A stretch of DNA of 27,321 nucleotides. It comes from a virus. The stretch lies in the UHGV virus genome UHGV-0288412. One strand, 5' to 3'. Positions 302-16,627 of the stretch are shown here, piece by piece. Numbering within the stretch: position 1 is the first letter of the stretch; the number at the start of each line of letters is the position of its first letter. A program made the position numbers and the translations under genes. A model generated the notes under the pieces. It ran no database searches and was not told the DNA's origin. It saw only the letters and a list, made by a program, of their open reading frames with translations.

Positions 302-334
302 AAAAAAGCGCCTCTAGTGGGCGCTTTAATTTTA
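302..334. terminator. Bidirectional rho-independent terminator between convergent genes
   Basis: AGCGCC-tctagtg-GGCGCT hairpin (307-325) flanked by an A-run upstream and a T-rich run downstream; sits between the plus-strand helicase stop (300) and the minus-strand endolysin stop (332). Confidence 0.6.
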
Positions 335-685
335 TCCATTCCATCGTGATTTTTTCGATCTGGAATCGATATGCGTAAAGGTTTTATATTTTCCTAAGCC
401 GTATTGAGTAGGATATTTCCCATCAAGATAAGCATGAACAATATCAGGCGAGACACCCTTGATAACAATGTCAGCCGCGCGGCCTCGAACATGATAGCTA
501 TTGGTTGCGCCGCCTACATTCTTGTTATGAGTCGGGCAACGGTTCCCACTGTTAATAATCACTGGTTTACCGAAGTGCTCTCGTACATCCTCAAGAATCA
601 CCAGTAATTCAGCGTCGATTGTATCATAATCACATTTTCCGCATTTACATTTAAATTCCTTGCGAGAAAAATGCTTACTTAACAT
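332..685 (-). CDS. Endolysin, zinc peptidase M15 family (DD-/LD-peptidase-like)
   Basis: 117 aa; SGNRCPTHNKNVGGATNSYHVRGRAADI and a downstream H-x-D (THID) match the Zn-binding His/Asp signature of M15 peptidoglycan peptidases as I recall it; size typical of phage L-alanyl-D-glutamate peptidase endolysins. Confidence 0.65.
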   Translation of the reverse strand: MLSKHFSRKEFKCKCGKCDYDTIDAELLVILEDVREHFGKPVIINSGNRCPTHNKNVGGATNSYHVRGRAADIVIKGVSPDIVHAYLDGKYPTQYGLGKYKTFTHIDSRSKKSRWNG

Positions 686-694
686 ATTACCCCC

Positions 695-1042
695 TTAGAT
701 CATTTCGAAGATATAACCAATAAAGCGCATACCCTTGATATAATAAGGAGCAGTGCCTACACACACCGCGCGTGCATCACCCAGACAGTTAAAGCTATAA
801 GGATTAACCACATCAACTTCTTGTCCTACACGAAAACGATACTTAGGACGTTTAGCCAATGTAGCGACACAAAACACGGTCCCTTTTTCATGATCGCGGA
901 TACATTCTTTATATTGTTTATGTTTAACTCTCTTCGCCTCAAAATCATGTGTCATGGATTCTGGGCTAATGCCATTGATAAAAATACCGGAAAGCTGGTC
1001 GACCGGATAAGTAGGAAATTCAGTGAAAATATTTTTAGCCAT
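695..1042 (-). CDS. Hypothetical protein (115 aa)
   Basis: Clean ORF immediately upstream of the endolysin on the same strand; no transmembrane segment, so not an obvious holin; no motif recognised. Confidence 0.4.
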   Translation of the reverse strand: MAKNIFTEFPTYPVDQLSGIFINGISPESMTHDFEAKRVKHKQYKECIRDHEKGTVFCVATLAKRPKYRFRVGQEVDVVNPYSFNCLGDARAVCVGTAPYYIKGMRFIGYIFEMI

Positions 1043-1080
1043 GTTATACCCCCATAAGATTCTATGAGGGTATTTATGGA

Positions 1081-1764
1081 TTAAACGTATCTCATGCGCG
1101 ATTTAATGTGCTTATTAATGTTCTTAAGCATCATTTCCTCGTTGCTTTCCCACGATCCTAGCGTCGAATAACGAGTAGAAATTTTATCCGACTTAACGGC
1201 AACAATTCGCTTACTCTGTTTCTGGATGCGTTTCTCTAAGCGACGTTTTGCCACCGCCGATCCATTCTTAGCGCGTTTGGTTCGGGATTTCTTAGGCTTG
1301 TACTTCTTCATGATAAAAGTCCCTTCCTTGTTCTCTACCTTGATGAAGTTGCCGTTTTCGATGTTACGCATCATCTTACCGCCTTTGATGGCCTTAATGT
1401 TCCCGTGGGCGTCTAAGACCTTACCGTTAGCGATTGGCACTAGCTTATTGATTTTGCCACCATCGAAATAGTGTTTCAGATAGTCATCCTGACTGCCGAT
1501 CTTCTTGTCCTTATCCCTTGCGCCCTTGATGAAGATTTGGTGTCTGGTCCCTGATCGGTTCTTGTAGTTGGTATTACCTACAGCTTGCTGAGTCCATCGA
1601 GTAGGTCTATCAACATTCTTGTTAATCTTCTTCTGGAGTGCTCTGGAAGCAAAGATCGCCCCTTCCCCTATCGCCTTTTCGAATGTATCGGTTGCTTTAT
1701 CAGTCCATTGGCGTAACGCTTTCTTAGTCCTTAGAGCGTTTCGTTTATTGGTACTGGTTGCCAT
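1081..1764 (-). CDS. Hypothetical highly basic protein (227 aa)
   Basis: Long ORF, very Lys/Arg-rich (KKYKPKKSRTKRAKNGSAVAKRRLEKRIQKQSKR); consistent with a nucleic-acid-binding or internal virion protein; function not assignable from sequence alone. Confidence 0.4.
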   Translation of the reverse strand: MATSTNKRNALRTKKALRQWTDKATDTFEKAIGEGAIFASRALQKKINKNVDRPTRWTQQAVGNTNYKNRSGTRHQIFIKGARDKDKKIGSQDDYLKHYFDGGKINKLVPIANGKVLDAHGNIKAIKGGKMMRNIENGNFIKVENKEGTFIMKKYKPKKSRTKRAKNGSAVAKRRLEKRIQKQSKRIVAVKSDKISTRYSTLGSWESNEEMMLKNINKHIKSRMRYV

Positions 1765-1765
1765 G

Positions 1766-1936
1766 TTAGCCCCCTAATAACGAAAAGACCCCCGCCAGTG
1801 TCCTTAGCAATTGTTCATCCACGGTCATAGCCGGGAGTTCAAGCCCAAAGGACGTAAGCAGAGGTCTAATTGCTACGTTATAAGTGAGGGCGATAATCAA
1901 GAGATAACCAAAATATTTCTTAAGTTTATTCTTCAT
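1766..1936 (-). CDS. Small membrane protein (56 aa from the internal Met; possible holin or exclusion protein)
   Basis: Start chosen at MKNKLKKYFGYLLIIALTYNVAI because it follows an AAAGGGGTGA Shine-Dalgarno and avoids overlap with the upstream gene; N-terminal hydrophobic helix and hydrophobic C-terminus; no lipobox Cys. Confidence 0.4.
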   Translation of the reverse strand: MKNKLKKYFGYLLIIALTYNVAIRPLLTSFGLELPAMTVDEQLLRTLAGVFSLLGG

Positions 1937-1955
1937 ATATTCACCCCTTTTATTA

Positions 1956-2234
1956 TTATTTTTGTTTGAGTATGTCGAGAACTTGGTCAAATTTAGCGTC
2001 CATCGCAACCACTTTCTTTTCTATACCGTGAAGGGTTTGTTCCATTCGATAAACTCTCTCGGCGATCTGGTCGTGGTTATTCTGCATTGTTTCAAACTTC
2101 TGATTAAACAATGCATCATTGGACTCTAATTTCGACAATCTATTTTCAGTTGCTAATTGATTTCGGTGAAGTCTCCAAAGACCACCACAAATTAAGGCGA
2201 TAACACCGATACCGCCATATATAATTTCAGTCAT
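1956..2234 (-). CDS. Membrane-anchored coiled-coil protein (92 aa; i-spanin-like topology or exclusion protein)
   Basis: N-terminal TM helix (IIYGGIGVIALICGGLW) followed by a charged, heptad-like region; GGGGG Shine-Dalgarno 5 nt upstream of the ATG. Confidence 0.45.
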   Translation of the reverse strand: MTEIIYGGIGVIALICGGLWRLHRNQLATENRLSKLESNDALFNQKFETMQNNHDQIAERVYRMEQTLHGIEKKVVAMDAKFDQVLDILKQK

Positions 2235-2287
2235 TACGCCCCCGATATTTTTATATAGTTTAATGGCAAAATTATTTAGATAAAAAT

Positions 2288-2321
2288 AATCCCGCCTAAC
2301 TCAAAAGAATTAAGCGGGATT
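2288..2321 (-). terminator. Rho-independent terminator downstream of the J-like gene
   Basis: On the minus strand AATCCCGCTTAATTC-TTTT-GAGTTAGGCGGGATT forms a roughly 15-bp stem (two G-U pairs) followed by a U-rich run (AUUUUUAU). Confidence 0.6.
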
Positions 2322-2340
2322 AATTATTAAAATTAAATTT

Positions 2341-5300
2341 TTAAGAAACAGTAATACCGGTAGTTGCTTTTTTAGTTACCATTACTGTTAAATCACTGAT
2401 CCATGTGCTAGGCGTCCAGTTGTTGATTGCGCTTGATTGCACTTCAAAGGTCAAGGTCACAGCACCTTTACCCGCTGGCATATCAATAACACCTGAGTAA
2501 AGACCAGTATTACCGCCATACGCCCTATTATACAACTCTGACCCATTCTTACGAACAATCAGGCGACAGGTGTCGTAATAGGTATTATTGTTCGACCCTT
2601 CACGCGCTCGCAATCCACCAAAACTAACAGCCGGAATAACGATTTGACGATCGAACTTGTGATCATCTTCAACGCGAACAGTGACCGTACCCTGTGGATA
2701 ACCAGCATAACCATTATCAACGTTAACATCACGATGCGGGAACTTACGTCCAATCACCTTAACGAAATCACCCTTAACCTGAGTAGCTTCGAGCATACCC
2801 TTAATAACACAGCTAGAGTTAATCGTGACGTTGTTCAGAGTACCAGAATCAGCCGTGATATTACCTTTAACGGTAGCGTTCATGAACGTAGCGGACCCGT
2901 TCTTGTTGATATGCCATCCGGTCGATCCGTTCCAGTTGGAAGACTGGATATAGTTACCGATTTTAGCGTTATCAATTGCACCGTTTACGATCTTCGCGTT
3001 AGTGATTGCCCCGTCCTGAATCTTCGCGCTGTTAATTGCAGCATTGCCGATTTTAGCCGTGGTAATCGCCGCATCATTAATCTGGGCTGTACCAATTGCA
3101 GCATTACGAATCATCGCATTATCGAGATAAACCTTGTTACCTTCGATACCAAACGGGCATACTTCCGATCCGTTCTGTGGAGCTACCGCAATTTTATCAG
3201 CATTAAAGATGATTCTCGTCGGTTGCGCCGGATCGTTGGTTGCGCTCATGTGAATACCAGCCACGCGACCATCTGCATTAACCGCCAGATTATATTTGCT
3301 GTTAATGGTTCCCCTCAAAGCATCGATTTTTACATCTGCTTCCTGATTCACACCAGCAATCTTGCCATCCATTTCTACCCGAACTTGGTCAATCTTACTT
3401 GCGCTTGCTGCTTCACTGGTAGCAATAGCTTGTTTCAGGGTAGTAGCAGATGCACTAACTTCTTTGGTGATATCGCCTTTCAGTTCAGCTTTAACCTGAT
3501 CAATCTTAGTGGAGCTAGCTTGCTCGCTGGTAGCAATCAGACTCTTTAAGGTATTGGCTGAGGCTTGGACCGTCTGCCCTGTTTCGGTAGTGATTTGCTT
3601 ATGCATTGCATCAATTTTAGCATCGGCATTAGCGCCAGCTTGAGCAATAGCATCCGCGATAGTTTCATCTAAGCGGTCTTGTAAACCAATCAGGTCTTCC
3701 AGTGCTTCTTTGTCCTGATCGTCCCAGCTAATTGTAGATCTCATTTGCATGAAATAAGGTTCAGACCAAACAGCATCATCCATACCGAAAATATCGTAAT
3801 GTGCCGCACGAAGATAATAATCACCATCAGCCAAATCAAAGGAAGTATGGCTAACACTATTCGTGCTTACTGCCCTTGCATCGGAGAAAGTGTTATCGGT
3901 TGCATACTGGATGATTGACCCTGCATAATCATGTTCTACGTCATCTGCCCAGCTAACAAACACACTATTAAAGCCACCACGCGCACTAAAACCTTTCATT
4001 GGCTTATGTTGTGGGTTGATAGCCACTAAACGCGCTGGGGCGCTCTCTGAGTTGTTATAGCCCTTAGCCGATACTTCTACCGTCAGTTGACGCGAAAGGC
4101 CGTTAAACTGGTTCATATCAAGCGTATAAGTCCATGATTCAGGATCGCGGGTACGGTACTGAATAGACTTACCAGCCTTGTTAGTCACCTTGATAATGTA
4201 TGCTTCAAACAGGTCACTAAACTTGTTAGTTTCACCGTTGATCTCAACATCTAAGCCTTGCTGGTTTTCCCATTCGATAATCAGATCATTACCTTCGAAA
4301 GTTCCTGGCGTGCTACCCTGATTTTTGATTCGAATAACCGGAGTCGGCAATTCATAGGTAACAGTCGGATTCTGGTTAATCAGTTCTACCCAATCGGATC
4401 GAGCGATGATACCGAAAGCACAAACTCGGTAATCATAAGAGCGATCTTTCGCCAGTGCATTGACACTGAAAATTTGCTGTGAAGTCTGTCCCAGCTTAAT
4501 CCAGTTAGGTGATCCGCTTACACGGTAATCAATCTGGAAACCATAACGGTTAAAATCTTCCGGTGCATCCCATGTCAAAGTAACATTTTTACCGTAAATC
4601 GTCTCGCCAGTTGCCTTAATTCTGAAATTAGTAGGCTTCTGTACTGTCATTGAATCCGGTAAACCACTTGGTCGGTTATCTGGGTTAGCCGCATAGTTCA
4701 GGTCAGTATAAACCTGAGAATTATATTCTGTAGCGGTGATAGTCATCATCCCAGCAATACCAGAATCAATCGAGCGATCAATTGCAGTAATACGCCATAA
4801 GGAATTATTCAGCTTCAATTCATCATAGGTTACGCTGATAACGTCCCATACTTCGGCAGTGAATGCGTCAGTAGTCATAAAGCTGATAACCTGAGTGATA
4901 CGAGATTTATTTCGTTCAATACTCGCAAGTTTATCAATCTGGGCTTTAGACTTAACAAAACGATATTCAATATCTTTAGCGATAATTCGACCATCTTGAC
5001 GAATAGTAGCATCGTTTTCAGCATCAGCCGGATAACGTAGCATTTGCTCGGAATAGTCGATTGATGGTTCCTGATACATCGCGTTAATGGTATTGAAATA
5101 ACCGTTAGTGCCACCTGTTTTCAGTGATACTTTCCCCATCATAATATTGTCTTCATTGAAGGTATGCTTAACAATATCAGGAGCATCCAGTTTCAGGGTA
5201 ATACGTCCAAAGGATTCGAACATCACCCCGCCGAAAGTCTGCATAAGGCTAGTCAAGTTCTCTTTAAAGCTGGCGTTCGGATCACATGCACCGTTTGAAT

Positions 5301-6117
5301 GTAGATCCATCTGGCGTACTTGTTTACGTACTTTCAGGAATGAATCAACGTTAATGTTTTCAATTGGTACGGATAAGCCATATTTTTCATTTGTTAGGTA
5401 GTGGAAAATCTGATCCACGCCGTTAGTGCTAGCCTCAATAGCATTGGTTTCAAGGTTACGGATTTTAAGGCCGCAAACGTCTACTGCTACCTGGCTATTT
5501 GGCTGGAGAATATCAACACCAGCAGCAAGAGATTTGTCATCGCGACGCAACACAATACACATGGTTGCAATACCATTGCCTTTGTAGTTGTCGTTCCAGT
5601 CTGACCCTAAATGACGTTTTGCCAGTGACAATGCGGTGTTAGGATTCTTACCAGTGCGGAACTCAACCTCTAAGACTTTCCGGTATTCTTCTTTAATGTT
5701 GCCTTTGTCCAGTACACCATCACGGATCGTCATGTTCTTACCAACAAGAACATTTTTGTTATCGATAAACAGTGCTTTGTAATGGTCGATTTCACCCTCG
5801 GCAATAGCGAAGATTTGCACTAACTTATTGTTTTCTTGCTTGGAAATTGCTTTGTAAACGCAGATTGCACCCGTGCGGGTAGTACCGAAAATAACGGGTA
5901 ATACTGTCTTAGGATCGTTTGATGTTCCTAGTGTCACCGCATTATCTGGGCTTTGTACTTTCGGTGTTTTTGGTGCGCCTACAGTGGAAGCGATCAAAGT
6001 CATTGCACCAGCAGCCATACCGATAGCGACTGCGGTCATAACCGAAAATGTTGCGGCTGCCGCCATCCCAGCCGAAGCACCAGCAATAACCGCGCCTACC
6101 AATACTTCAAATCCCAT
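2341..6117 (-). CDS. Central tail fibre / tail tip protein, lambda gpJ-like (1258 aa)
   Basis: Size and position at the end of the M/L/K tip gene block; the last ~150 aa (GNITADSGTLNNVTINSSC...DRQIVIP...GVIDMPAGKGAVTLTFE...MVTKKATTGITVS) align by eye with my recollection of the lambda J receptor-binding C-terminus; start overlaps the upstream stop (TAATG). Confidence 0.8.
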   Translation of the reverse strand: MGFEVLVGAVIAGASAGMAAAATFSVMTAVAIGMAAGAMTLIASTVGAPKTPKVQSPDNAVTLGTSNDPKTVLPVIFGTTRTGAICVYKAISKQENNKLVQIFAIAEGEIDHYKALFIDNKNVLVGKNMTIRDGVLDKGNIKEEYRKVLEVEFRTGKNPNTALSLAKRHLGSDWNDNYKGNGIATMCIVLRRDDKSLAAGVDILQPNSQVAVDVCGLKIRNLETNAIEASTNGVDQIFHYLTNEKYGLSVPIENINVDSFLKVRKQVRQMDLHSNGACDPNASFKENLTSLMQTFGGVMFESFGRITLKLDAPDIVKHTFNEDNIMMGKVSLKTGGTNGYFNTINAMYQEPSIDYSEQMLRYPADAENDATIRQDGRIIAKDIEYRFVKSKAQIDKLASIERNKSRITQVISFMTTDAFTAEVWDVISVTYDELKLNNSLWRITAIDRSIDSGIAGMMTITATEYNSQVYTDLNYAANPDNRPSGLPDSMTVQKPTNFRIKATGETIYGKNVTLTWDAPEDFNRYGFQIDYRVSGSPNWIKLGQTSQQIFSVNALAKDRSYDYRVCAFGIIARSDWVELINQNPTVTYELPTPVIRIKNQGSTPGTFEGNDLIIEWENQQGLDVEINGETNKFSDLFEAYIIKVTNKAGKSIQYRTRDPESWTYTLDMNQFNGLSRQLTVEVSAKGYNNSESAPARLVAINPQHKPMKGFSARGGFNSVFVSWADDVEHDYAGSIIQYATDNTFSDARAVSTNSVSHTSFDLADGDYYLRAAHYDIFGMDDAVWSEPYFMQMRSTISWDDQDKEALEDLIGLQDRLDETIADAIAQAGANADAKIDAMHKQITTETGQTVQASANTLKSLIATSEQASSTKIDQVKAELKGDITKEVSASATTLKQAIATSEAASASKIDQVRVEMDGKIAGVNQEADVKIDALRGTINSKYNLAVNADGRVAGIHMSATNDPAQPTRIIFNADKIAVAPQNGSEVCPFGIEGNKVYLDNAMIRNAAIGTAQINDAAITTAKIGNAAINSAKIQDGAITNAKIVNGAIDNAKIGNYIQSSNWNGSTGWHINKNGSATFMNATVKGNITADSGTLNNVTINSSCVIKGMLEATQVKGDFVKVIGRKFPHRDVNVDNGYAGYPQGTVTVRVEDDHKFDRQIVIPAVSFGGLRAREGSNNNTYYDTCRLIVRKNGSELYNRAYGGNTGLYSGVIDMPAGKGAVTLTFEVQSSAINNWTPSTWISDLTVMVTKKATTGITVS
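2930..3130 (-). repeat. In-frame octapeptide-type repeats within the J-like gene
   Basis: Encodes NAAIGTAQINDAAITTAKIGNAAINSAKIQDGAITNAKIVNGAIDNAKIG; visible as ~24-bp periodicity in the DNA (aat tgc/acc gcc att ...). Confidence 0.5.
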
Positions 6118-6582: not shown

Positions 6583-7236
6583 TTATTTCTTAGAAGAATG
6601 CCACTTGCTTTCGCTATTCCACTTCCCGGCACGGGAGAAGAATAGATCGTTCTCGTTTCCAACATAGGATCGGTGGATACCATCGGAGGCATGACTACGA
6701 GCGTTTTTATCTAGAACTTCCCAGATACTATTAAGCTGAAATTCTGATTCGTTTTTACACTCATCATCTTCATGTTCGATGTTAATCCCGATGGAATCGA
6801 CTACCCCACGGAAAACAGGGTAAGTGGTTTCAACTTTGCCCGTGTTGGGGTTCAGGAACACCATCTCGATTTTCACATCTGATTTATCGAATTGCTTGTT
6901 TCGAATGAGAGTAATGTATTCTTCGCGAACGTTAGAAACGGTTACGTTGATCCCGTTGTTGTTGATCTCCTTCTCTTCGGTATTCGATGAGATTTGAAGA
7001 AAATCACCCGTTGCGAGATACGTAAATCCGTTATAGTCCAAATCGAAATACCCATCAGTAAGCCGTAGAACGTCCCCTGACGCTGTAATCACTTCGATAA
7101 TGTGAAACATCGATCCAGTGGAAAAAAGCTGCGGTAGCGTCAATCTAGACACGTTCTGACCTGTCTGGTCGTTGTATACCTCAATGAAGTCAAGATTAGT
7201 GCATAGTTTGCTGAATGATTCCTGAATAGTTGCCAT
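6583..7236 (-). CDS. Minor tail protein (lambda gpL-like position), 217 aa from the internal start
   Basis: Start at MATIQESF overlaps the upstream stop as TAATG (translational coupling); position between the M-like and K-like genes. Confidence 0.5.
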   Translation of the reverse strand: MATIQESFSKLCTNLDFIEVYNDQTGQNVSRLTLPQLFSTGSMFHIIEVITASGDVLRLTDGYFDLDYNGFTYLATGDFLQISSNTEEKEINNNGINVTVSNVREEYITLIRNKQFDKSDVKIEMVFLNPNTGKVETTYPVFRGVVDSIGINIEHEDDECKNESEFQLNSIWEVLDKNARSHASDGIHRSYVGNENDLFFSRAGKWNSESKWHSSKK

Positions 7237-7796
7237 TATACATTCTCCACTAATTCGAATTTCATCTTGCCAATCTGGGCGATCTTCCAATCGATGTTTT
7301 CAGTTTTGAGAACAAATTCGCCTTCTACGTTTTGATACTTGATCACCTCACCCGCCAGGACGTTCTGACGCAAGTTAGGGAAGAGTTTCATTTCACCACC
7401 TGATTTCACATCTTCGGTGATCGTGTAGATTTTCTTGTGGTTCTCAAACTGGATGACAGTTCCCGCTTTCAGTGTTCCGGTGAAGTTGGAGATTCTCACC
7501 TTACGCCCACCGCGAGCAGTACCAGCAGCAGCCGTTACCATCTGGCGTACATCACCTGTATATTTTGAAAAGTAAGACAGTGGCACATTGAAAGGACGAC
7601 CAAAAAGGTGACGTGCTACAAATTCTTTTACTTCGTTAATATCCTGAGCCATGAAATTAGCTGTAAATTCTGCTTCATAAAAATGGATGCCAGTAAAGCG
7701 ACGCTGGAACTTACCGGAGATAGATTGCGCCTTGAAGAAAGGCTGTTTTGATTTAAGAGTAAAATCTGTGATTTTAATATTTTTGGATTTGAACAT
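7236..7796 (-). CDS. Minor tail protein / distal tail protein (gpM-position), 186 aa
   Basis: Directly downstream of the tape measure gene and coupled to the next gene; no specific motif recognised. Confidence 0.5.
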   Translation of the reverse strand: MFKSKNIKITDFTLKSKQPFFKAQSISGKFQRRFTGIHFYEAEFTANFMAQDINEVKEFVARHLFGRPFNVPLSYFSKYTGDVRQMVTAAAGTARGGRKVRISNFTGTLKAGTVIQFENHKKIYTITEDVKSGGEMKLFPNLRQNVLAGEVIKYQNVEGEFVLKTENIDWKIAQIGKMKFELVENV

Positions 7797-7846: not shown

Positions 7847-10273
7847 TTACATCTTACGACGCTGAACGTCTTCTATCGCCTGAGCAACAAACTTAGCGTG
7901 ACGTTTGATAGCATCCATGACCATCTTGTCTGAGCTATTAACGTTGCCGTTAATGTTCAAAGGCGCATTAACTTCAATCGGCTGAGAGTTGCCACCTGAT
8001 TTTTGAGCAGCAAGGAAGTCTTTCAAATCACCGTTAGTACGCTGATCAACTACTCGTTCACCCTTATCAAGCAACCATGTACCCTCACGCGGGATGTTAT
8101 CGATACCATCATGAGCCATACCGCTAACGTTAGTAGACTTGATGTTTGCGATGTTCCCCATGTTCTGAGAAACAGCCAATGCAGCAGCAGCGATCTTTTG
8201 TCCTGTGGTAACGTTGGTCGGATCGTTCCATGCATCGGTAGCAGCCGTCCACATGTTCACCGTCGCTTGTCCGATAGAGAATGCTTTATGAGCATTGAAA
8301 GCCATCTGCATAGCTTTAGTGTTTTCCTGCCCGAAGAGAGTCATTGCAGCAGCAAAACCGCCATACATATCATCGGCTATTGACTGTCGAGCATCAGCAT
8401 ATTTCTTCTCAATTGCAGCCATTCGTTTTTGATGGTTTTCATTGAGTTTTTCTAATGCTTCCATCCGTTTAGCCGGATCATTAATACCGTCAATCTTGAG
8501 TTTATCGGTCTTATAATCTTGTTCAGCATCCGATTTCTCTTTATCGATTGCATTAAATTTAGCAAACGGATTATTTGAGTCCTGATAGTCTAAGCTATTG
8601 GTCAACTGATTGGTTTTAAAACCATCCATTCCATGCAAAGAATCTTCAATCTGTGAATAACTTTGTTCGGTATCATTCACACGGCGCATATATTCTTCGT
8701 AGGAGATAGCCTTACCATCAAGTAACCGTTTATGGCTTTCTAACTCATTGTCCCTGATTTGTTGCAATTGTGTTAAAGCATTCAGAGCATCAACCGGATC
8801 AGCACCTAAGATCATTTTGTATACGTTTTCAGTATTCTGATCGATTAAGGATTGGCGTTTCGCGGCTGCGTCTTGCTGAGAGATTAAGCCCAGATCTAAA
8901 GCAGTATCCAAATCTTTCAAGCTGGCTTCTAACTGCTTGTTTTGAGAAGCAATAGACGCGGCGACTTGCCCTTGCAATTTAACATCAAGTGCATTCAGTC
9001 GCTTGATTGCATCCTCACGTTCTTTCTGTGCTTTTTCTGCGGCTTCCTTAGCCTTTTTAGCTGCCTCTTCCGCTTTCTTGCGCGCTTCTTCCTCGGCTTT
9101 CTTCTCGTTGCCAGACTTACCCAATGAAGCTGGTCGAGTTGGTGTAGTCGGGATAGTCAAATCACGGTTAGGATCTGCCTTGCGGGTTAGATGTTCCCCG
9201 TTATCGACAACAATCAGAGAGCCATTTTTCTTATAAGAATCACCAAAACGTTTCTTAAATCCTTCAACATCAAAGCCAGCAGTACGAGGATCGACACCAG
9301 CACCACGGATCGCGGCCTTTTCCCAATCTGCCAGATTATTCCAACGCTTTTCTTTATTGTACTTGTCAATAATCTTTTGAGCGTCTTTATGGTTGGTGTT
9401 AAGAATACCACCAGTTGCGGTCTTGCCTTCTTTATTCAGTCGATCTAATGCCCTGAATAGAGAACTCTTTTCCCAATCAATATTAAACCAGTCAAATAGC
9501 CAGTTTAAGCTATCAACCAAAGGACCAGTAATGGTCATGCCGACACCTTTCAGGTTATTTTCCAGCTTATTAATATTCTGAGAAAATTTATCATATTTTT
9601 TAGCGTTTTCTTCGGTGACGTTAACAGATTGATTCTGAATAGCGATCATCGCCTCTTGAGCACTATTATATTTCTCAAGCTGGCTGGTCATATGGCTTGA
9701 ATCACTGGATAAAGATTCCATCATGAACTTGATTTCAGCCATTGATTTTCCGGCTTTCTTCATGTCATAGAACACTTGGATCGCCGCTTTCATACCACCT
9801 TGCGGATCTGTCATGAAGTGAGCATAGTTTTCTAACTTAAGACCAACCGATTCTAAGTCATCAGCAATACCACCACCGTTAGCCCATGCATCACCCATTT
9901 TATCTAAGGTGTCTTTGTTGATATCACCAAATTTTTCAACTGTTAGGCCAGTGCCAGAAAATTCCTTTTCCAGTCTTTGAAGGGATTCAATCGAGAGTCC
10001 GGTCGCCTTAGATACTTCTGAATACTGTTTAACGTATTCCGCACCAGCTTTAGCGGCTGCAACCACTGCGGTCGCAACTAAGCCGATACCACCAGCAGCC
10101 AAACCAGCAGAGCCAGCGATCCCACGAAGAGATCCAGTCAAACCAGACAAGCCACCACCAAAATCAATACCACTTGCCTTTTCAGACAAACTATCGAGAA
10201 GGTCGGCGGCTTCACTGGTACTTCTCCTTAGACCTTTATTATCCCCTTCTATTGTTACTATATGTTTTGTCAT
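7847..10273 (-). CDS. Tail tape measure protein (808 aa)
   Basis: Long, Ala/Gly-rich N-terminus with Gly-rich hydrophobic stretch, extended charged coiled-coil segments (AEEEARKKAEEAAKKAKEAAEKAQKERE); lies immediately after the G/T chaperone pair. Confidence 0.8.
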   Translation of the reverse strand: MTKHIVTIEGDNKGLRRSTSEAADLLDSLSEKASGIDFGGGLSGLTGSLRGIAGSAGLAAGGIGLVATAVVAAAKAGAEYVKQYSEVSKATGLSIESLQRLEKEFSGTGLTVEKFGDINKDTLDKMGDAWANGGGIADDLESVGLKLENYAHFMTDPQGGMKAAIQVFYDMKKAGKSMAEIKFMMESLSSDSSHMTSQLEKYNSAQEAMIAIQNQSVNVTEENAKKYDKFSQNINKLENNLKGVGMTITGPLVDSLNWLFDWFNIDWEKSSLFRALDRLNKEGKTATGGILNTNHKDAQKIIDKYNKEKRWNNLADWEKAAIRGAGVDPRTAGFDVEGFKKRFGDSYKKNGSLIVVDNGEHLTRKADPNRDLTIPTTPTRPASLGKSGNEKKAEEEARKKAEEAAKKAKEAAEKAQKEREDAIKRLNALDVKLQGQVAASIASQNKQLEASLKDLDTALDLGLISQQDAAAKRQSLIDQNTENVYKMILGADPVDALNALTQLQQIRDNELESHKRLLDGKAISYEEYMRRVNDTEQSYSQIEDSLHGMDGFKTNQLTNSLDYQDSNNPFAKFNAIDKEKSDAEQDYKTDKLKIDGINDPAKRMEALEKLNENHQKRMAAIEKKYADARQSIADDMYGGFAAAMTLFGQENTKAMQMAFNAHKAFSIGQATVNMWTAATDAWNDPTNVTTGQKIAAAALAVSQNMGNIANIKSTNVSGMAHDGIDNIPREGTWLLDKGERVVDQRTNGDLKDFLAAQKSGGNSQPIEVNAPLNINGNVNSSDKMVMDAIKRHAKFVAQAIEDVQRRKM

Positions 10274-11007: not shown

Positions 11008-11514
11008 TTAAGAGATTTTCAAAGTCTGCTTAGTGCCAGTCTTCTTAATGTTGGTAAGGAAAGCAGCCGGAGGATTGCTTAACCAATAGTAATGAAAACC
11101 ACTTTGCATACTGTTATAAGGAACAGTGACAGCAGCACCACCCAAATTAACGGTTATATTCCCCGCTCTACCGTTCTGGAGATATACAGCCATAGTAGGA
11201 GTACCGCCATTGAATTGACCAACGATAACGCCAATCAGACGCCCTACGCCCACGTTTTCGGGGTTCTCCATAGATCCTTTACCGCGCATGTCAGTTACTG
11301 GATAGTTTGAAGCAGTTACACCCCAGTTATTACCCAATGAAGTAGACCACGCAGCAGTAGCTACAACCGTATCCATACCACGACCACACATCGCACTCAT
11401 GTTAGCTGGGCGACTAACCTTTAATGCGTTCATTGCTGCGCTCATCCATCGTTGACCAGTTACAGAAACAGCAGATGACCCGACCCAGCCAGGCTTATTA
11501 ACGACATTCGCCAT
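11008..11514 (-). CDS. Hypothetical Gly/Ala-rich protein (168 aa), probably tail-associated
   Basis: Clean ORF with GGAG Shine-Dalgarno, between the upstream terminator and the G-like gene; no motif recognised. Confidence 0.4.
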   Translation of the reverse strand: MANVVNKPGWVGSSAVSVTGQRWMSAAMNALKVSRPANMSAMCGRGMDTVVATAAWSTSLGNNWGVTASNYPVTDMRGKGSMENPENVGVGRLIGVIVGQFNGGTPTMAVYLQNGRAGNITVNLGGAAVTVPYNSMQSGFHYYWLSNPPAAFLTNIKKTGTKQTLKIS

Positions 11515-11688: not shown

Positions 11689-12162
11689 TCATCCAGCGGT
11701 AAACACTTCCTGTTTCAGCGGAGCACCATCAACGGCAAAGGTAAACTCTTTAGTTACCACTTCTTCATCGCCACCGTTCATAGCAACTTTAGAAATGAAG
11801 CCGTTGTAAGCAATGCGAATACCAGTCTGTTTTCCGGCGTCAACATAATACTCTACTTTGATCTGGCAGCGAGTGCCGTCTTCGGCAGCTTTTGCGAGCT
11901 TCTCGTGTACCGCATCACCTGGGATGTAGTTAACGGTCAGAGTCAGATCTTCAACGTTCAGTTTACCAACCAGCTTACGGTTATACTGAGAAGAATACGA
12001 TTTGACTTCTACCGTACCGCGAGACAGTGAATATTCAGGAAAACCAGCACACTCTTTAATTTCTTCGTATGCTTCATCGGCAAGGTCGGTGTTAGTGGTA
12101 TCGGCGTGATAGAACAGACTTACCAGACCACCAGTAAAAATATCTTTGAATTGCTGAGACAT
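11689..12162 (-). CDS. Structural protein, possibly tail-tube-like (157 aa), ending at UGA
   Basis: Follows the fibre gene; pattern VGKLNVEDLTLTVNYIPGD...QIKVEY loosely resembles the core of the V-like protein at 15794-16627; ends VFTAG-UGA in the context GCUGGAUGAACUAAC. Confidence 0.45.
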   Translation of the reverse strand: MSQQFKDIFTGGLVSLFYHADTTNTDLADEAYEEIKECAGFPEYSLSRGTVEVKSYSSQYNRKLVGKLNVEDLTLTVNYIPGDAVHEKLAKAAEDGTRCQIKVEYYVDAGKQTGIRIAYNGFISKVAMNGGDEEVVTKEFTFAVDGAPLKQEVFTAG

Positions 12163-12219: not shown

Positions 12220-12561
12220 TTATTTAGTTGCTTTCAGTTCGGCAATTTCTTTCTGTAATGCTTCGATCTGTGCTTTATATTTGGCGTCCATTTCCTGCAT
12301 AGCCTTGATGATTAAAGCATTGACAGCAGAGTTAGAAATAGTCTTGATTGCTTCTGGATTTTCTGGATCATCGGTGGATTGAATACCTACTGCTTCCGGC
12401 AATACTTCTTCCAGATCCTGAGCAATAATACCTACTTCGCGTTTAATCACACTACGGTCTTTAAGAGATTTAACTTTATCGTAGGTGTAGACTTTCAGTG
12501 AGTTTACTTTCTCTAATGCGCCGTCCTGTAATTCTTCCTTGTTAATTTTCAAACGGGAGTC
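12220..12561 (-). other. Intramolecular chaperone domain of the tail fibre; predicted autocleavage at the S/D junction in RSDSRLK
   Basis: Conserved S-D-x-R-L-K-x-N motif at residues ~1052-1059, followed by a coiled-coil C-terminus (AQIEALQKEIAELK). Confidence 0.6.
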
Positions 12562-15500
12562 AGAGCGAATGTAAACATCGTTAAAGCTACCGTTACGACC
12601 TGCGGTAAAGTCACCAGCAGCGTTAAAGTCAAAGTTAGTATCATGAACATGGAGACGAACAAGAGCGTTACCGATAGTACCGCTAGGAACATGCACACCC
12701 ATTGCTGCAATGTGATATTTACCTTGATGGGTTGCTTTCCAGATGTTATGAGCGGAATCGGTTGATTGCTGGCAGTCGACCTGAATACCGGAAGCACGAT
12801 CACGCCAGCTAGCCCAACTACCACCAGCAACGCTACCACGAATAAGACCATTACCGCCACCGGATACAGTGCCCGTTTCAAGGTGAATCATCTTACCGCC
12901 GAATTTCCAGACTTCGGCTTGTTTCTCACCGCGCATACGCATAACACCAGCATCATCGCAGTACAACAGACCCAACTCTAAGCCGTTTGGATCTCTAAAC
13001 CATAAATGCTTGTTACCGCTTCGTTTAAATTCAATATCAGCACCGTTGATAGTGATATTACCGCCAGTGTGAATTGCTTTAGGCTTAACAGTACCGTTAA
13101 TGGAAAACTCGATTAATTCAGTACCCGGACCACCCGGTCGTTGTGTGTACCAGTGCCAACCGCTTTCATCAGCGCATTCGAATACTTGTTTACGAGCATC
13201 AGCACCCCATGCACGAATATTAAACGTTGATGTGGCGGTCCCCTTACCCCAACGAATTTGTCCAGCAGCTTCCAAATCACCGAAGAATTTAGTTTTAATC
13301 GCACCAGTTGCTAAAGTACGTTCAGTGGTGAAGTGTGCACCTTTGCTATCGTCAAGCTGTAGGATGTTATCACGAGCGTTATTACTATCGCCCCAATGGT
13401 TAAACCGGAAATAATCACGAGAATTTAATCGTCCAGCATCAAAGGTTAACATCCCATTACCGACATAAATGTCACCCGCAAAACGAGCAGCACGGCTATC
13501 TCTTTCGAGAACTAATGCACCTTCGTTACCATCACCACCTAACGTAACTTTACCCGTTGACAGGTCGTAAATGAATGGTCGGTTGCCGTTCCAACCACCA
13601 AATTTATCGTTTTCAGCAGTAGACAACAAATATACTTTTTGACCATCATTACGCCAGAATGCACCGTAGTTACCATAGATCATACGGAATGCGTTAGCGT
13701 ATGCAGCAACATATTCGCCGTTGGTGTATACAATTTTTGTTTTGCCAGTGGATAATGAAACCTGACCGTTCTCATCTAGACGTAATGAGTTATTACCTTC
13801 GGTTAATTCGTTTACTAGCTGCAACGTGTTAGTAGTTCCATCACCATAGCCTAGATAACCTTGACGGCGGTTAGCACCACTACGATAATCCATAAACTCC
13901 ATGTAGTTGCTTTGTCCGGTGCGTCGTTCCATTCGGATAGCATTATTGCCCTTAGTGAAAAGACGAACAACGGAAGTTCCGTTAGAGTCAATTCTTAATT
14001 TCTCGTCGGCATCAGTAGTACCCGTTGCTAGGCGATAGGTGCTACCTTCAACAGTTTCATGCCATATGGTCTCTACGGCTTGGCTACGGAATTTACGCAG
14101 ATATTTTTTAGCGCGTTCTTGTGTATTACTCAAACTTACAATATCGTAAGTTGCTTGTGAGTTATTATCAAAAGACAGAGTACCGCGTTTATTTTCAGTG
14201 TTAAACAGAGTAATAACTCGACCTTCGTTAACACCAGTAGACGGTTTAACGAGAGTTAATTCAGGCGTATCATACACATTTAAAGTCACATCAGCACTTT
14301 TACCGTACTCTACAGTTACTTTATCGGTATATTTGCGATATTTCACGTATACATCATAGTTATCGCCAGAAGTATTGACCGCAAAGGTTTCAAATTCATT
14401 ATTAGTATTTCGACGATAAGCTACAACGTTTACACCTTTCGGGTTTCCATTACCGGAACGGATAACAATTTCTACAATATCACACTGATCAGGACTATTA
14501 ACGTTATAACCATTCCCACCGAAAATACGGATGAAAAAGCCTCGACCACCTTGTGGAATTGTTGCCGTTGCCAGTTTAAAGTAACCAGCCGCATTTTCAC
14601 CAGTTGACATATGAACGGGTTTAGTGAACATCTGATCAACTTCGGCTTTACTATACACACCCAATTCAGTCGGAGTCGGCTTATCACCTTCGTGATACAT
14701 GCGGTAGCTGAATCGCTTATTACCATCTTTATCAAAGCCATAGGTTTTAACTTGAGATGAGCTAGACCCATAGTGGAACTCAAAACCGCGACCGTGTGCT
14801 TTACCGCCAGAATGAGGAATGTTAAGGATTAAGTTACCCCAACCTTCGGCATTGTTTGGACGGAATGCACCAAAATAATCAAGGTTACGAGCACCAGCAT
14901 CATCAAAATAGTTAGCTGTTTTGGTTAACAGATAGCCGTGATGGTAAGTGTTGGTATTCTTCTTGATGTAAGCAGCATCGGCACTACCTTCAATCGAATC
15001 AATTCGCTGGTTAGCTGCGGCAATTGCGGCATCAGTAGAAGATTTATTCTGGTCTACCTTGTTGTTAATTGCGGTATGGTTGCTATTAACAGTGCCAGTA
15101 AGATTGGTGATCTTCGTGTCGGCATCGCGTTTATTATTTGCTACGGTCGTTTCTATGGCTGATTTATTTGCTGCGACAGTATTCGTTAAGTTGGTAACGT
15201 TGGTATTAGTCTGATCAACTCGCGCATTAATATCTGTCTTGTTCTTGTTAATTGTCGCGTTGATAGTATCGCGGGTTGAAGTAATAGTCTGATTCAGTTC
15301 AGTCTTAGCAGCCGCCAGAGCGTTAGCCGCTTCGGTTTTATTGTTACCTACTGTGGTAGTCAAAGCATCAATTCGTTTGTTGGCTGCGTTATCTCCAGCA
15401 GTGATTGAAGCATTGAGAGTATCACGGGTAGAAGTGATAGTCTGATTCAGTTCAGCTTTAGCACTAGCCAGATTATCAGCGGCTTCTTGTTTGTTGGAAG

Positions 15501-15717
15501 CAATAACACGGTCAGTGTTGGTTTTGTTATTGTCTACTTTCGTATTCAGTTCAGCGTGTTTTTCTGGAGAAACACTAATTTGAACTACTGCGTTATTTTT
15601 ATCTTTGGTATACAGAACGTGATCAGCAAGGTTAATAGCCAATTCACCCTGTGATAATTGTTCCGGCGTTGGTTTTTTACCAGCCGTCTGTGTGCGTTTA
15701 AATTGGATTGATTGCAT
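12220..15717 (-). CDS. Long tail fibre with C-terminal intramolecular chaperone (S74-type autoproteolytic domain), 1165 aa
   Basis: N-terminus QFKRTQTAGKKPTPEQLSQGELAINLADHVLY is a recurrent fibre N-terminal motif; long N/T/A-rich coiled-coil region; C-terminal ~113 aa beginning SDSRLKINKEEL... matches the chaperone domain of T5 L-shaped fibre and endosialidases as I recall it. Confidence 0.8.
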   Translation of the reverse strand: MQSIQFKRTQTAGKKPTPEQLSQGELAINLADHVLYTKDKNNAVVQISVSPEKHAELNTKVDNNKTNTDRVIASNKQEAADNLASAKAELNQTITSTRDTLNASITAGDNAANKRIDALTTTVGNNKTEAANALAAAKTELNQTITSTRDTINATINKNKTDINARVDQTNTNVTNLTNTVAANKSAIETTVANNKRDADTKITNLTGTVNSNHTAINNKVDQNKSSTDAAIAAANQRIDSIEGSADAAYIKKNTNTYHHGYLLTKTANYFDDAGARNLDYFGAFRPNNAEGWGNLILNIPHSGGKAHGRGFEFHYGSSSSQVKTYGFDKDGNKRFSYRMYHEGDKPTPTELGVYSKAEVDQMFTKPVHMSTGENAAGYFKLATATIPQGGRGFFIRIFGGNGYNVNSPDQCDIVEIVIRSGNGNPKGVNVVAYRRNTNNEFETFAVNTSGDNYDVYVKYRKYTDKVTVEYGKSADVTLNVYDTPELTLVKPSTGVNEGRVITLFNTENKRGTLSFDNNSQATYDIVSLSNTQERAKKYLRKFRSQAVETIWHETVEGSTYRLATGTTDADEKLRIDSNGTSVVRLFTKGNNAIRMERRTGQSNYMEFMDYRSGANRRQGYLGYGDGTTNTLQLVNELTEGNNSLRLDENGQVSLSTGKTKIVYTNGEYVAAYANAFRMIYGNYGAFWRNDGQKVYLLSTAENDKFGGWNGNRPFIYDLSTGKVTLGGDGNEGALVLERDSRAARFAGDIYVGNGMLTFDAGRLNSRDYFRFNHWGDSNNARDNILQLDDSKGAHFTTERTLATGAIKTKFFGDLEAAGQIRWGKGTATSTFNIRAWGADARKQVFECADESGWHWYTQRPGGPGTELIEFSINGTVKPKAIHTGGNITINGADIEFKRSGNKHLWFRDPNGLELGLLYCDDAGVMRMRGEKQAEVWKFGGKMIHLETGTVSGGGNGLIRGSVAGGSWASWRDRASGIQVDCQQSTDSAHNIWKATHQGKYHIAAMGVHVPSGTIGNALVRLHVHDTNFDFNAAGDFTAGRNGSFNDVYIRSDSRLKINKEELQDGALEKVNSLKVYTYDKVKSLKDRSVIKREVGIIAQDLEEVLPEAVGIQSTDDPENPEAIKTISNSAVNALIIKAMQEMDAKYKAQIEALQKEIAELKATK
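15259..15472 (-). repeat. Imperfect direct repeat (~60 bp, two copies 154 bp apart) inside the fibre coiled-coil region
   Basis: gttgatagtatcgcgggttgaagtaatagtctgattcagttcag (15259-) against cattgagagtatcacgggtagaagtgatagtctgattcagttcag (15413-); encodes AELNQTITSTRDT(L/I)NA twice. Confidence 0.65.
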
Positions 15718-15793: not shown

Positions 15794-16627
15794 TCAATAC
15801 TCCCCGAAATCGACTCTATCGGTCTTAGCTACTGCGCCAATTTCGCTAGGTGTCGGTTTCTCATTGGTGGAATATACCTTGATCCATTCAGAACGACCGT
15901 TTTCCTGAATATTTCGGACACGTAAACGCGGTGCGCCAGAAGTATTACAGGTTAATTGCCATGCGCCATGCTCATTAGCTTGAAGGTGAATTAATGATGT
16001 GTCGGTTGAATATGGATTACCGCTAGCAGTTCCCTTGTAAGTTACGAAACGGTTTCCGGCTAATGCCTCGCTATCAATCGGACCCGTGAATGGATTTACA
16101 CCAGCACCCAAACCAAAATCACCCTGACGTAAGATCCGGCCTTCGGTAGCAATACCCCTTGCCAAAATCCCGCCATCTGGTTCAAGTTTAAATTCCAGTG
16201 TTACAGCTTTGTTATCGCTACCACGGGTTTTATGTGATGTGACGTAAGCATCATAGATGACATAGTAACCAGTGTTAGCAGCACTATAGCCAGAGTTAAC
16301 AACATAGAACATACGGAAGCGTAAAGGTGTTTTATCCTCTACCGCTTTCATCAACAATGCTTGATGTTCGTCATCCAGAACACGGTTTAATGTGAGTGTT
16401 GTTGGTTCCAGTCTACGATAACCAGCAAGTTTCCCCGTAGCGTCCTGATCGTACTCTTCCAGAGTTTCAATCTCTGTGGATTCGGTTAGCGTAGGGAATG
16501 CTGCGACGTTCTCAATAGAACTAAAGCTAGGATCGAAAAAGTCCGGCTGGCTATCGACCATAGTAGACACGGAGACTTCAACATGCGACCCCGTAAAAAT
16601 ATCTAAGTTATCATGCGTAATATTCAT
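15794..16627 (-). CDS. Major tail tube protein, lambda gpV-like (277 aa)
   Basis: EEYDQDATGKLAGYRRLEPTTLTLNRVLDDEHQALLMKAVEDKTPLRFRMFYV parallels my recollection of lambda V (ESYDDS...TATGQ...FTLAW...[20 protein letters not shown]); follows the U-like gene; C-terminal extra domain ending KPTPSEIGAV. Confidence 0.6.
   Translation of the reverse strand: MNITHDNLDIFTGSHVEVSVSTMVDSQPDFFDPSFSSIENVAAFPTLTESTEIETLEEYDQDATGKLAGYRRLEPTTLTLNRVLDDEHQALLMKAVEDKTPLRFRMFYVVNSGYSAANTGYYVIYDAYVTSHKTRGSDNKAVTLEFKLEPDGGILARGIATEGRILRQGDFGLGAGVNPFTGPIDSEALAGNRFVTYKGTASGNPYSTDTSLIHLQANEHGAWQLTCNTSGAPRLRVRNIQENGRSEWIKVYSTNEKPTPSEIGAVAKTDRVDFGEY

Follow-up and report, generated by a model that had tools for sequence, protein, structure and literature searches.

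The 3' end of the gene encodes a lambda J-type fiber tip

Positions 2344-2802 of the window, the 27,321-nucleotide stretch of UHGV virus genome UHGV-0288412 analyzed here, probably encode the receptor-binding tip of the central tail fiber of a temperate E. coli siphovirus prophage. As we read it, the tip is an Ig-like PF12421 domain in an allele clade of its own, and its similarity to lambda J does not tell which receptor it binds. The segment codes for the last 153 amino acids (aa 1106-1258) of a J-like protein, whose stop codon lies at 2341-2343. The features of the gene and its immediate surroundings are as follows:

2341-6117, minus strand: J-like central tail fiber / tail tip gene, 1258 aa (ORF list and translation, Pfam, PHROG, PGAP)
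2344-2802, minus strand: segment under study, aa 1106-1258, collinear with lambda J 980-1132 (BLASTP)
2344-2748, minus strand: Ig_GpJ_C receptor-binding domain proper, aa 1124-1258 (PF12421; AlphaFold2 model; Foldseek)
2926-3105, minus strand: N-A-x-I type repeats, about 60 aa (1005-1064); a gap in the BLASTP alignment, without counterpart in lambda J
3034-3318, minus strand: Phage_Tail_Tip (PF09327) fiber shaft, aa 934-1028 (Pfam; aligned with lambda 872-931)
2287-2322, minus strand: terminator-like hairpin of 16 pairs followed by a T run, 19 nt past the J stop codon

The original prediction held that the last ~150 aa are collinear with the C-terminus of lambda J, the part that recognizes the outer-membrane receptor, and both points were borne out. 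A BLASTP alignment of the last 153 aa with lambda J 980-1132 (NC_001416) was significant, with 62 of 153 identities (41%, E 3e-33), and ran collinear to the last residues with three small gaps; identity to lambda J over the 153 aa was 40-41%. The PF12421 profile, [quoted passage not shown], matched aa 1124-1258 over positions 3-135 of 135, at 117.1 bits (cut-off 26.2) and an E value of 7.7e-34. The likeness of the tip to lambda J is real and far beyond chance.

The last 200 aa were modeled as a monomer with AlphaFold2, which gave an eight-strand sandwich at moderate confidence (mean pLDDT 72.6). In a Foldseek search of the PDB, the top four matches were the lambda central fiber (8xck, closed, and 8xcj, with LamB) and A8 gpJ (9wca and 9wcb), with E values from 2e-15 to 3e-14. 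The best match was 8xck (E 1.9e-15); TM scores for the four were about 0.52-0.54, normalized to the 200-aa query. By sequence, the first PDB match of the tip was A8 gpJ 713 (9wca/9wcb, E 3.5e-56), followed by lambda J (E 5e-38). The title of entry 9wcb is [quoted passage not shown].

As in lambda gpJ, the PF12421 domain forms the extreme C-terminus of the fiber and follows a PF09327 shaft, which is common to lambda J and many J-like proteins, including that of phage DCP80. Similarity to lambda J reached upstream to about aa 949, opposite lambda 872, and BLASTP found no significant segment against lambda J outside aa 949-1258. Unlike lambda J, the shaft here carries the N-A-x-I repeats, a 24-aa part of which is identical in the DCP80 protein. 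Besides PF12421 and PF09327, there were weak Pfam matches to PF13550 (20 bits, cut-off 23) and fn3 (18.4 bits, cut-off 25). The protein was assigned to tail-fiber families in PHROG, the gene is called "phage tail tip (domain-containing) protein" by PGAP in E. coli genomes, and its place is after the genes for the tape measure, distal tail protein, and hub. The full-length protein is analogous in architecture to lambdoid gpJ, with a hub/FNIII part, the N-terminal two thirds, that is not recognizably lambda-like by BLASTP.

A conserved framework carries divergent predicted distal loops

Four distal loops were predicted from the secondary structure of the model and a loop alignment; for L4 the codons were also checked on the sequence. 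Each is given here with its counterpart in lambda J:

2695-2739, minus strand: predicted loop L1, aa 1127-1141, PHRDVNVDNGYAGYP; opposite lambda 1006-1016, which includes hot spot S1012
2572-2613, minus strand: predicted loop L2, aa 1169-1182, LRAREGSNNNTYYD; opposite lambda 1044-1055, which includes the indel hot spot 1048-1049
2506-2517, minus strand: predicted loop L3, aa 1201-1204, GGNT; opposite lambda 1074-1077, adjoining the indel hot spot 1077-1078
2407-2430, minus strand: predicted loop L4, aa 1230-1237, AINNWTPS; opposite lambda 1103-1110, which includes the critical residue D1107

In lambda J, the hot spots for indels and host range lie at 1012, 1048-49, 1077-78, and 1107 (PMC6646904), and the four predicted loops coincide with them. 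These hot spots and the AlphaFold2 model were used for the mapping in place of structural LamB contacts; in the text of PMC11101478 and PMC12617516, the LamB-binding loops are named L1-L4 without residue numbers. Loops were assigned to the top or bottom of the domain from the strand order of the monomer model, not from a solved structure of this protein.

Strand order and framework were shared with lambda, including the turns DDHxFDRQ, NG, and (I/V)DMPAG (IDMPAG here) on the predicted membrane-distal side. Framework identity was 47% to lambda, 59% to the A8 tip, and 64% to the 1A2 tip. In the loops, by contrast, only 6 of 41 residues (15%) were identical to lambda, with indels in L1 (15 residues versus 11 in lambda), in L2 (a 2-aa insertion), and in or near L4 (a 1-aa gap). 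Loop identity was 23% to A8 and 29% to 1A2, and 32% between A8 and 1A2 themselves. The loops are only 23-29% identical to those of these OmpC binders, barely above lambda, which counts against the preference for OmpC given below.

Individual loops differed in what they resembled. L3 was partly like that of 1A2, and L1 and L2 were unrelated to those of the OmpC binders; in A8, L1 is short and L2 much longer. L4 contains the motif NNW(T/Y)P, which is common to A8 and 1A2 and not found in lambda (AINNWTPS here, GANNWTPT in A8). The tip also shares FDRQIVIPAV, CRLIVRKNG, and YSGVIDMPAG with 1A2, along with NNW.P in L4.

The tip is an exchangeable module

The fiber tip is a swappable module in this lineage, present as alleles I, II, III, and perhaps a fourth (IV). 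Among 26 full-length IMG/VR homologs, the first 900 aa were 95-99% identical, whereas the tips fell into allele types at 99-100%, 80-81%, and 61-68% identity. Nucleotide identity fell abruptly near aa 1000 or near aa 1100, which gives clear cassette boundaries. In a sister contig, the neighboring genes were 94-100% identical and the tip only 62%.

The best backbone matches were the J-like fibers of DCP80 (PQ671644) and of ~100-kb Vibrio phages. The DCP80 protein, the nearest deposited backbone relative, aligned over aa 29-1147 at 39.5% identity, and the DCP80 major capsid protein is 44% identical to its counterpart here. After a "KIEGDIV" junction, the C-terminus of the DCP80 protein is unrelated and has no PF12421 match, so the receptor domain has been exchanged between otherwise related fibers. 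A megablast search with the J gene gave no match among phage records; nothing at the DNA level therefore points to a recent acquisition of the tip from lambdoid phages. Composition likewise gave no transfer signal, with a GC content of 44.2% in the tip-coding segment and 43.9% in the rest of the gene.

In a neighbor-joining (NJ) tree, the tips of this lineage formed a separate clade with 95.5% bootstrap, apart from lambda and from A8/1A2. The split that joins this clade with the A8/1A2 group had 10.5% bootstrap, leaving the deep branching unsupported, and the receptor considerations below are based on identities and the loop comparison rather than on the tree. The tip lies outside the lambda allele class (40-41%, versus at least 99% within the class, which includes lambda, DE3, and HK629 and to which phage 21 is close) and outside the A8 and 1A2 classes (53% and 57%, versus 82-99% within each). 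On the best reading of these comparisons, the tip belongs to a domain already known to bind porins and adds a new allele clade to it. These results do not overturn current understanding. They add a distinct and well-populated clade of lambda J tips, carried by ~1% of complete E. coli genomes on an unrelated fiber backbone.

The closest relatives with tested receptors use OmpC

Among relatives whose receptor has been tested by experiment, the closest are 1A2, of the VT1-Sakai type, and A8, of the PhiR29_2 type. When gpJ chimeras carrying these tips, grafted at a conserved G-D-x-V-K junction (Eligo), were used, DNA was delivered into lamB/ompC-deleted cells complemented with ompC, whereas wild-type lambda gpJ gave no delivery into those cells (PMC11338833). 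1A2 uses OmpC of the EDL933 type (Brodel et al., Nature 2024), and A8 uses OmpC of both MG1655 and EDL933 and has been solved together with OmpC (PDB 9wcb). The 1A2 sequence was OCR text with frameshifts and was pieced together by three-frame tblastn against VT1-Sakai J; as far as this text allows, its C-terminus is that of VT1-Sakai J, with every in-frame piece identical. The tip studied here was 57% identical over 153 aa to 1A2, 53% to A8, and 40% to lambda, and A8 and 1A2 were 63% identical to each other. Within deposited phage genomes, the 1A2 type was the nearest class, at 55-59% over 153 aa, though its NJ clade is a different one and its J backbone is lambdoid, with lom and stf coming next. 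In overall identity, the tip was thus closer to the OmpC binders than to lambda.

These identities suggest that the receptor may be OmpC, as in the two nearest tested relatives. We regard this as a serious candidate that falls somewhat short of an even chance. OmpC is more likely than LamB to be the receptor, judging from the sequence comparisons, and the rest of our expectation, after OmpC and LamB, goes to OmpF or another outer-membrane protein. In the literature on the PhiR, 640R1, PPompW, and DCP80 phages and in a preprint on lysogens 4C10 and 4A7, no receptor data were found.

It is possible, though doubtful, that the tip binds an outer-membrane protein new to the domain family, such as native OmpF, OmpA, Tsx, FadL, or a TonB-dependent transporter, and that the allele types track different receptors. 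Such a receptor would fit the well-supported clade of this lineage, loops unlike those of every tested member, and alleles that differ mainly in their loops. However, every family member tested so far binds a trimeric porin, and the conserved framework and signal-relaying turns fit a three-fold symmetric receptor. A related proposal, which we put forward only tentatively, is that alleles I-III, and possibly IV, recognize one receptor, or several porin variants, new to the family and have been swapped as cassettes between a non-lambdoid temperate siphovirus and lambdoid prophages. If true, these alleles would offer parts already proven in nature for redirecting lambda-based DNA delivery particles, extending their reach past LamB and the two OmpC binders known so far. 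Alleles with new loops are of practical use, as such tips are now being grafted onto lambda gpJ to retarget DNA-delivery particles (Brodel et al. 2024).

The original prediction also took the likeness to lambda J to mean that the phage may use a maltoporin-like receptor, a step that the comparisons did not support. Binding to LamB, as in lambda, is unlikely. LamB is a proven receptor for this fold (PMC11101478), the tip shares its domain family and fold with the lambda tip that binds LamB, and porin specificity is plastic in this fold. On the other hand, at 40% identity the tip is no closer to lambda than the other allele classes are. Of 243 matching phage records, 21 carried the lambda allele at 99% identity or more, phage D2 had a partial match at 82%, and the other 221 did not exceed 46% identity to lambda. 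The nearer of the tested relatives act through OmpC and are independent of LamB, the loops are mostly unlike those of lambda and differ by indels in three of the four, and an N-W pair stands at or beside lambda's critical D1107, as in A8 and 1A2.

Approximately 40% identity to lambda is a family-level resemblance. At the nucleotide level, phage 21 J and lambda J share 94% identity, and in phage 21 a single mutation adds OmpC use, so receptor choice cannot be read at 40% identity in this fold. Since a handful of substitutions can change or broaden porin use in lambda (PMC6646904) and in phage 21, similarity is a weak guide in either direction. This serves as a caution on method that bears on genome-based host-range prediction: 40% identity to lambda J indicates a porin-binding tip, but not which porin it binds.

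Proposed mechanism of the tip

With a porin-binding tip as the preferred reading, a mechanism can be proposed by homology. The PF12421 tip, covalently fused to the end of a J-like fiber with a non-lambdoid hub part, would be present in three copies at the fiber end, as in the lambda-LamB and A8-OmpC complexes. The four hypervariable distal loops of each copy would be inserted into the opening of a trimeric porin in the outer membrane. Binding would then spread the bottom of the trimer and tighten its top, and this change would pass up a beta-prism and helical shaft, open the tail hub, and lead to DNA ejection. The trigger part of this scheme is modeled on the lambda-LamB structure paper (PMC11101478), and the trimer and its insertion into a porin are extrapolated from that paper and from the title of PDB entry 9wcb; family membership, fold, position, the conserved framework with variable loops, and modular exchange are what the analysis shows directly.

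The prophage also encodes a side fiber

This fiber belongs to a siphovirus prophage that is temperate and non-lambdoid; 55 of 5426 complete E. coli genomes carry it. One carrier is E. coli 23CRST001 (NZ_AP045758), where J lies at 3019145-3022921. When 25 kb of the window was searched by megablast against phage records, only a gp37-like gene matched, so this prophage has not been deposited as a phage. The genes after J encode small membrane or coiled-coil proteins and an M15 endolysin, and no receptor-binding proteins. Upstream of J are two tail-fiber genes:

12220-15717, minus strand: T-even gp37-like side (long) tail fiber protein, 1165 aa (phrog_1699, E 3e-142)
11008-11514, minus strand: gp38-like tail-fiber adhesin, 168 aa (phrog_1121; Pfam Gp38_N)

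It is very improbable that the lambda-type tip is a passive remnant and that recognition is left to the side fiber or to a separate protein encoded after J, as in T5 and T1-like phages: a full side-fiber module is present, and in many small siphoviruses the J-like fiber has a separate receptor-binding protein attached to it (PMC8594841), but the tip was intact in every full-length homolog seen, was kept at 99-100% within allele type I and replaced as a unit between types, as expected of a working specificity module, and is followed by a terminator-like hairpin and by genes of the kinds listed above. A separate receptor-binding protein downstream of J had also been considered as the main reading and was rejected as such on the grounds of the downstream gene content, the hairpin, and the intact tip.

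The gp37-like protein carries Gp34_trimer and Peptidase_S74 domains, and over 12289-14883 its gene was 76-83% identical at the nucleotide level to gp37 of RB49-like phages. The gp38-like adhesin was 44.6% identical to Stx-phage adhesins. Because a separate side fiber is encoded in addition to the central fiber tip, two specificities are plausible, in agreement with the earlier suggestion that a long side fiber provides the second.

Identification of the J-like tip

The J-like gene is a single long ORF and the last gene of a siphovirus structural module. The features of the region are as follows.

Features of the structural module and the genes beside it
21669-23573, terminase large subunit
19577-21088, portal
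17525-19531, capsid protein of 668 aa with a protease/scaffold part
15794-16627 and 11689-12162, minus strand, two ORFs matching major-tail-protein families (phrog_158), either side of the side-fibre gene
Within the module, tail-tube-like genes
12220-15717, minus strand, gp37-like T-even-type side fibre
11008-11514, minus strand, gp38-like adhesin with a Gp38_N domain
7847-10273, tape measure
7236-7796, distal tail protein
Listed between the distal tail protein and the J-like gene, two hub/assembly genes
2341-6117, minus strand, J-like gene (1258 aa)
2926-3105, minus strand, N-A-x-I type repeats of the fibre shaft, ~60 aa (aa 1005-1064)
2344-2802, minus strand, last 153 aa of the J-like protein (the tip), flagged in the original prediction
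2341-2343, minus strand, stop codon of the J-like gene
332-2234, minus strand, five ORFs downstream of the J-like gene: a membrane and coiled-coil protein (92 aa), a small membrane protein (80 aa in the ORF list, 56 aa by PGAP), proteins of 227 and 115 aa that matched no family with confidence, and an M15 peptidase (332-685)

The original prediction held that the last ~150 aa are collinear with the C-terminus of lambda J, and this was confirmed. BLASTP of the tip against lambda J residues 980-1132 (NC_001416) gave 62/153 identities (41%, E 3e-33), with three small gaps and collinearity through the final residues. Pfam PF12421 (Tip attachment protein J, C-terminal receptor binding domain) matched aa 1124-1258 at 117 bits (cut-off 26.2 bits; profile positions 3-135 of 135), and PF09327 (tail tip fibre) matched immediately upstream at aa 934-1028. 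AlphaFold2 modelled the last 200 aa as an eight-strand sandwich (pLDDT 72.6). The best four Foldseek matches of the model in the PDB came from two fibres, the central fibre of lambda (8xck, 8xcj) and that of A8 gpJ (9wca, 9wcb), at E values of 2e-15 to 3e-14. The resemblance in family, fold and position is real and is already captured by Pfam and NCBI annotation. Aligned over its full length, the protein resembled lambda J from aa 949 to the C-terminus, with a break at the ~60 aa of N-A-x-I repeats, and the N-terminal two thirds gave no significant alignment. The lambda J shaft lacks these repeats, and lambda J also lacks a long hydrophobic Ala/Gly-rich stretch found within aa 1-50 (5968-6117, minus strand; MGFEVLVGAVIAGASAGMAAAATFSVMTAVAIGMAAGAMTLIASTVG) and conserved in all members of the prophage lineage.

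Four distal loops, facing away from the shaft, were read from the strand order of the AlphaFold2 model; the rest of the tip is referred to as the framework.

Predicted distal loops of the tip
L1, aa 1127-1141, aligns with lambda 1006-1016
L2, aa 1169-1182, aligns with lambda 1044-1055
L3, aa 1201-1204, aligns with lambda 1074-1077
L4, aa 1230-1237, aligns with lambda 1103-1110

The lambda regions aligned with these loops correspond to four hot spots (1012, 1048-49, 1077-78 and 1107), which are linked to gain of OmpF use in lambda and to indels in natural J lineages (PMC6646904). The loops also fit the four "bottom loops" of the lambda tip that enter LamB (PMC11101478). The framework is conserved and the loops are variable: framework identity was 47% to lambda and 59% and 64% to the gpJ chimeras A8 and 1A2, and loop identity was 15%, 23% and 29%, respectively. 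The shaft-side turns DDHxFDRQ, NG and IDMPAG are conserved with lambda. L4 reads AINNWTPS in the window, GANNWTPT in A8, LVNNWYPT in 1A2 and RHSADIPP in lambda.

By homology with lambda, whose mechanism is described in PMC11101478, the tip would be expected to trimerise, bind a porin and be triggered. Three tips at the fibre end would put L1-L4 into a trimeric outer-membrane porin, insertion would spread the bottom of the trimer and tighten its top, and this change would act through a beta-prism and helical shaft to open the hub.

Receptor choice

A maltoporin-like (LamB) receptor had also been proposed from the likeness to lambda J. This inference was unjustified and is probably wrong, because the distance is family-level only, the closer relatives for which a receptor has been tested rely on OmpC, conservation does not extend to the parts that contact the receptor, and porin choice is labile in this fold. 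Among 243 phage records matching the lambda tip, 21 did so at ≥99%, one (phage D2) was a partial match at 82% and the other 221 were ≤46% identical. At 40%, the tip is no nearer to lambda than any other allele class is.

Compared by sequence with the PDB, the tip matched "A8 gpJ 713" best (9wca/9wcb; E 3.5e-56), with lambda J behind (E 5e-38). A8 and 1A2 are chimeras in which lambda gpJ carries the C-terminus of a J protein from a natural E. coli phage; they were designed for OmpC, not LamB (PMC11338833). With lamB and ompC deleted and MG1655 ompC supplied on a plasmid, delivery by wild-type lambda gpJ reached 1.9% of the cells at an MOI of 135 and delivery by A8 95% at an MOI of 84; 1A2 requires EDL933-type OmpC (PMC11338833). 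By its title, PDB 9wcb shows the open state of A8 gpJ together with EDL933 OmpC. The A8 tip is of the PhiR29_2 type (99%), and the 1A2 tip, within the limits of its OCR text, is that of VT1-Sakai J. Over 153 aa, the tip was 59% identical to that of phage 640R1 and closer to the OmpC users 1A2 (57%) and A8 (53%) than to lambda (40%). A8 and 1A2 share 63% identity over the tip, and each has 41-43% to lambda. Phage 21, whose J gene has 94% nucleotide identity to lambda's, natively uses LamB and gained OmpC by one mutation, then OmpF (PMC11336670). OmpC is a tentative candidate for the receptor, OmpF or another outer-membrane protein takes the rest of the probability, and LamB is unlikely.

Exchange of the tip

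The tip is a cassette in this prophage lineage too, which parallels the evolution of the lambda J "specificity region" as an independent module (PMC6646904). The 26 full-length homologues from IMG/VR were 95-99% identical to the window over their first 900 aa, and their last 153 aa fell into type I (the window's own; 99-100%, 16 contigs), type II (80-81%, six contigs) and type III (61-68%, four contigs; protein shorter by 10 aa). Three more contigs have the first 15 residues KGMLEATQVKGDFVK in common and a different loop set again (47-49%). Nucleotide identity of types II and III to the window falls from >90% to 54-76% at ~aa 1000, or at ~aa 1100 in one type III variant; the start of the repeats is one recombination boundary between tip alleles. 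A sister contig from the public run SRR30896110 had five neighbour genes at 94-100% identity and a tip at only 62%, with the differences located in the four loops. The J-like frame of this contig (positions 1-994) is broken within the repeats, with two called genes overlapping at 368-393, through either sequencing error or gene disruption.

The J-like protein of Escherichia phage DCP80 carries an identical 24-aa stretch of N-A-x-I repeats and is otherwise 39.5% identical. The repeats are in common up to KIEGDIV, followed by an unrelated C-terminus, and PF12421 had no match in this protein. In a neighbor-joining tree, the tips of the prophage lineage formed one clade (95.5% bootstrap) and A8 and 1A2 another (76%), with deeper nodes lacking resolution. 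The tip represents a new clade of alleles within a known type of receptor-binding domain, and the backbone that carries it is unusual. In several E. coli proteins in the databases, a PF12421 tip is attached to unrelated domains (ClpP protease, terminase small subunit, HTH, minor tail protein L). These proteins look like products of fusion at contig ends or of frameshifts, and they account for a stray "head maturation protease" PHROG match of the tip.

Prophage lineage and side fibre

The J-like gene was found in 55 of 5426 complete E. coli genomes, always chromosomal, at 88-98% nucleotide identity, and IMG/VR held 30 contigs of the same lineage. In strain 23CRST001 (NZ_AP045758 2999145-3042921), it lies in a prophage that carries a large serine recombinase and a Rha-type regulator and is integrated next to the curli (csg) locus and ycdY. 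Deposited phage genomes had no DNA-level match to the lineage except in the side-fibre gene. The best protein match of the capsid protein was DCP80 (44%), and those of the fibre backbone were DCP80 (39.5%) and ~100 kb Vibrio phages. Given the chromosomal lysogens and these matches, E. coli is the host and the phage is temperate, with head, tail and hub genes that are not lambdoid. The lineage also encodes a UvsW-like helicase and a GIY-YIG nuclease. DCP80 (PQ671644) is classified as Straboviridae/Gaprivervirus and has T4-type genes (motA, ndd, endonuclease VII), along with a siphovirus-type capsid protein, tape-measure-size genes and the related J-like protein; mixed assembly is one possible explanation of the record, an unusual mosaic another.

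The suggestion that the long side fibre provides a second specificity remains plausible, as gp37-like and gp38-like proteins are encoded upstream. Here a T-even-type side fibre is carried by a temperate siphovirus prophage. The gp37-like gene has 76-83% nucleotide identity over 12289-14883 to gp37 of RB49-like (Krischvirus) myoviruses, which suggests a fairly recent exchange with virulent phages. The adhesin best matched "tail fibre adhesins" of short-tailed Stx phages (44.6%). A Peptidase_S74 chaperone domain lies near the end of the gp37-like protein, an odd combination with a gp38-type adhesin. Since phrog_158 ORFs lie on both sides, the side-fibre gene sits within the tail-tube region, whereas in lambda it follows J. 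The five ORFs after the J-like gene are probably a lysis region; lom, cor and a separate receptor-binding gene were absent among them. A 301-aa antisense ORF within the J-like gene (2644-3549, plus strand, TTG start) is most likely a chance ORF.
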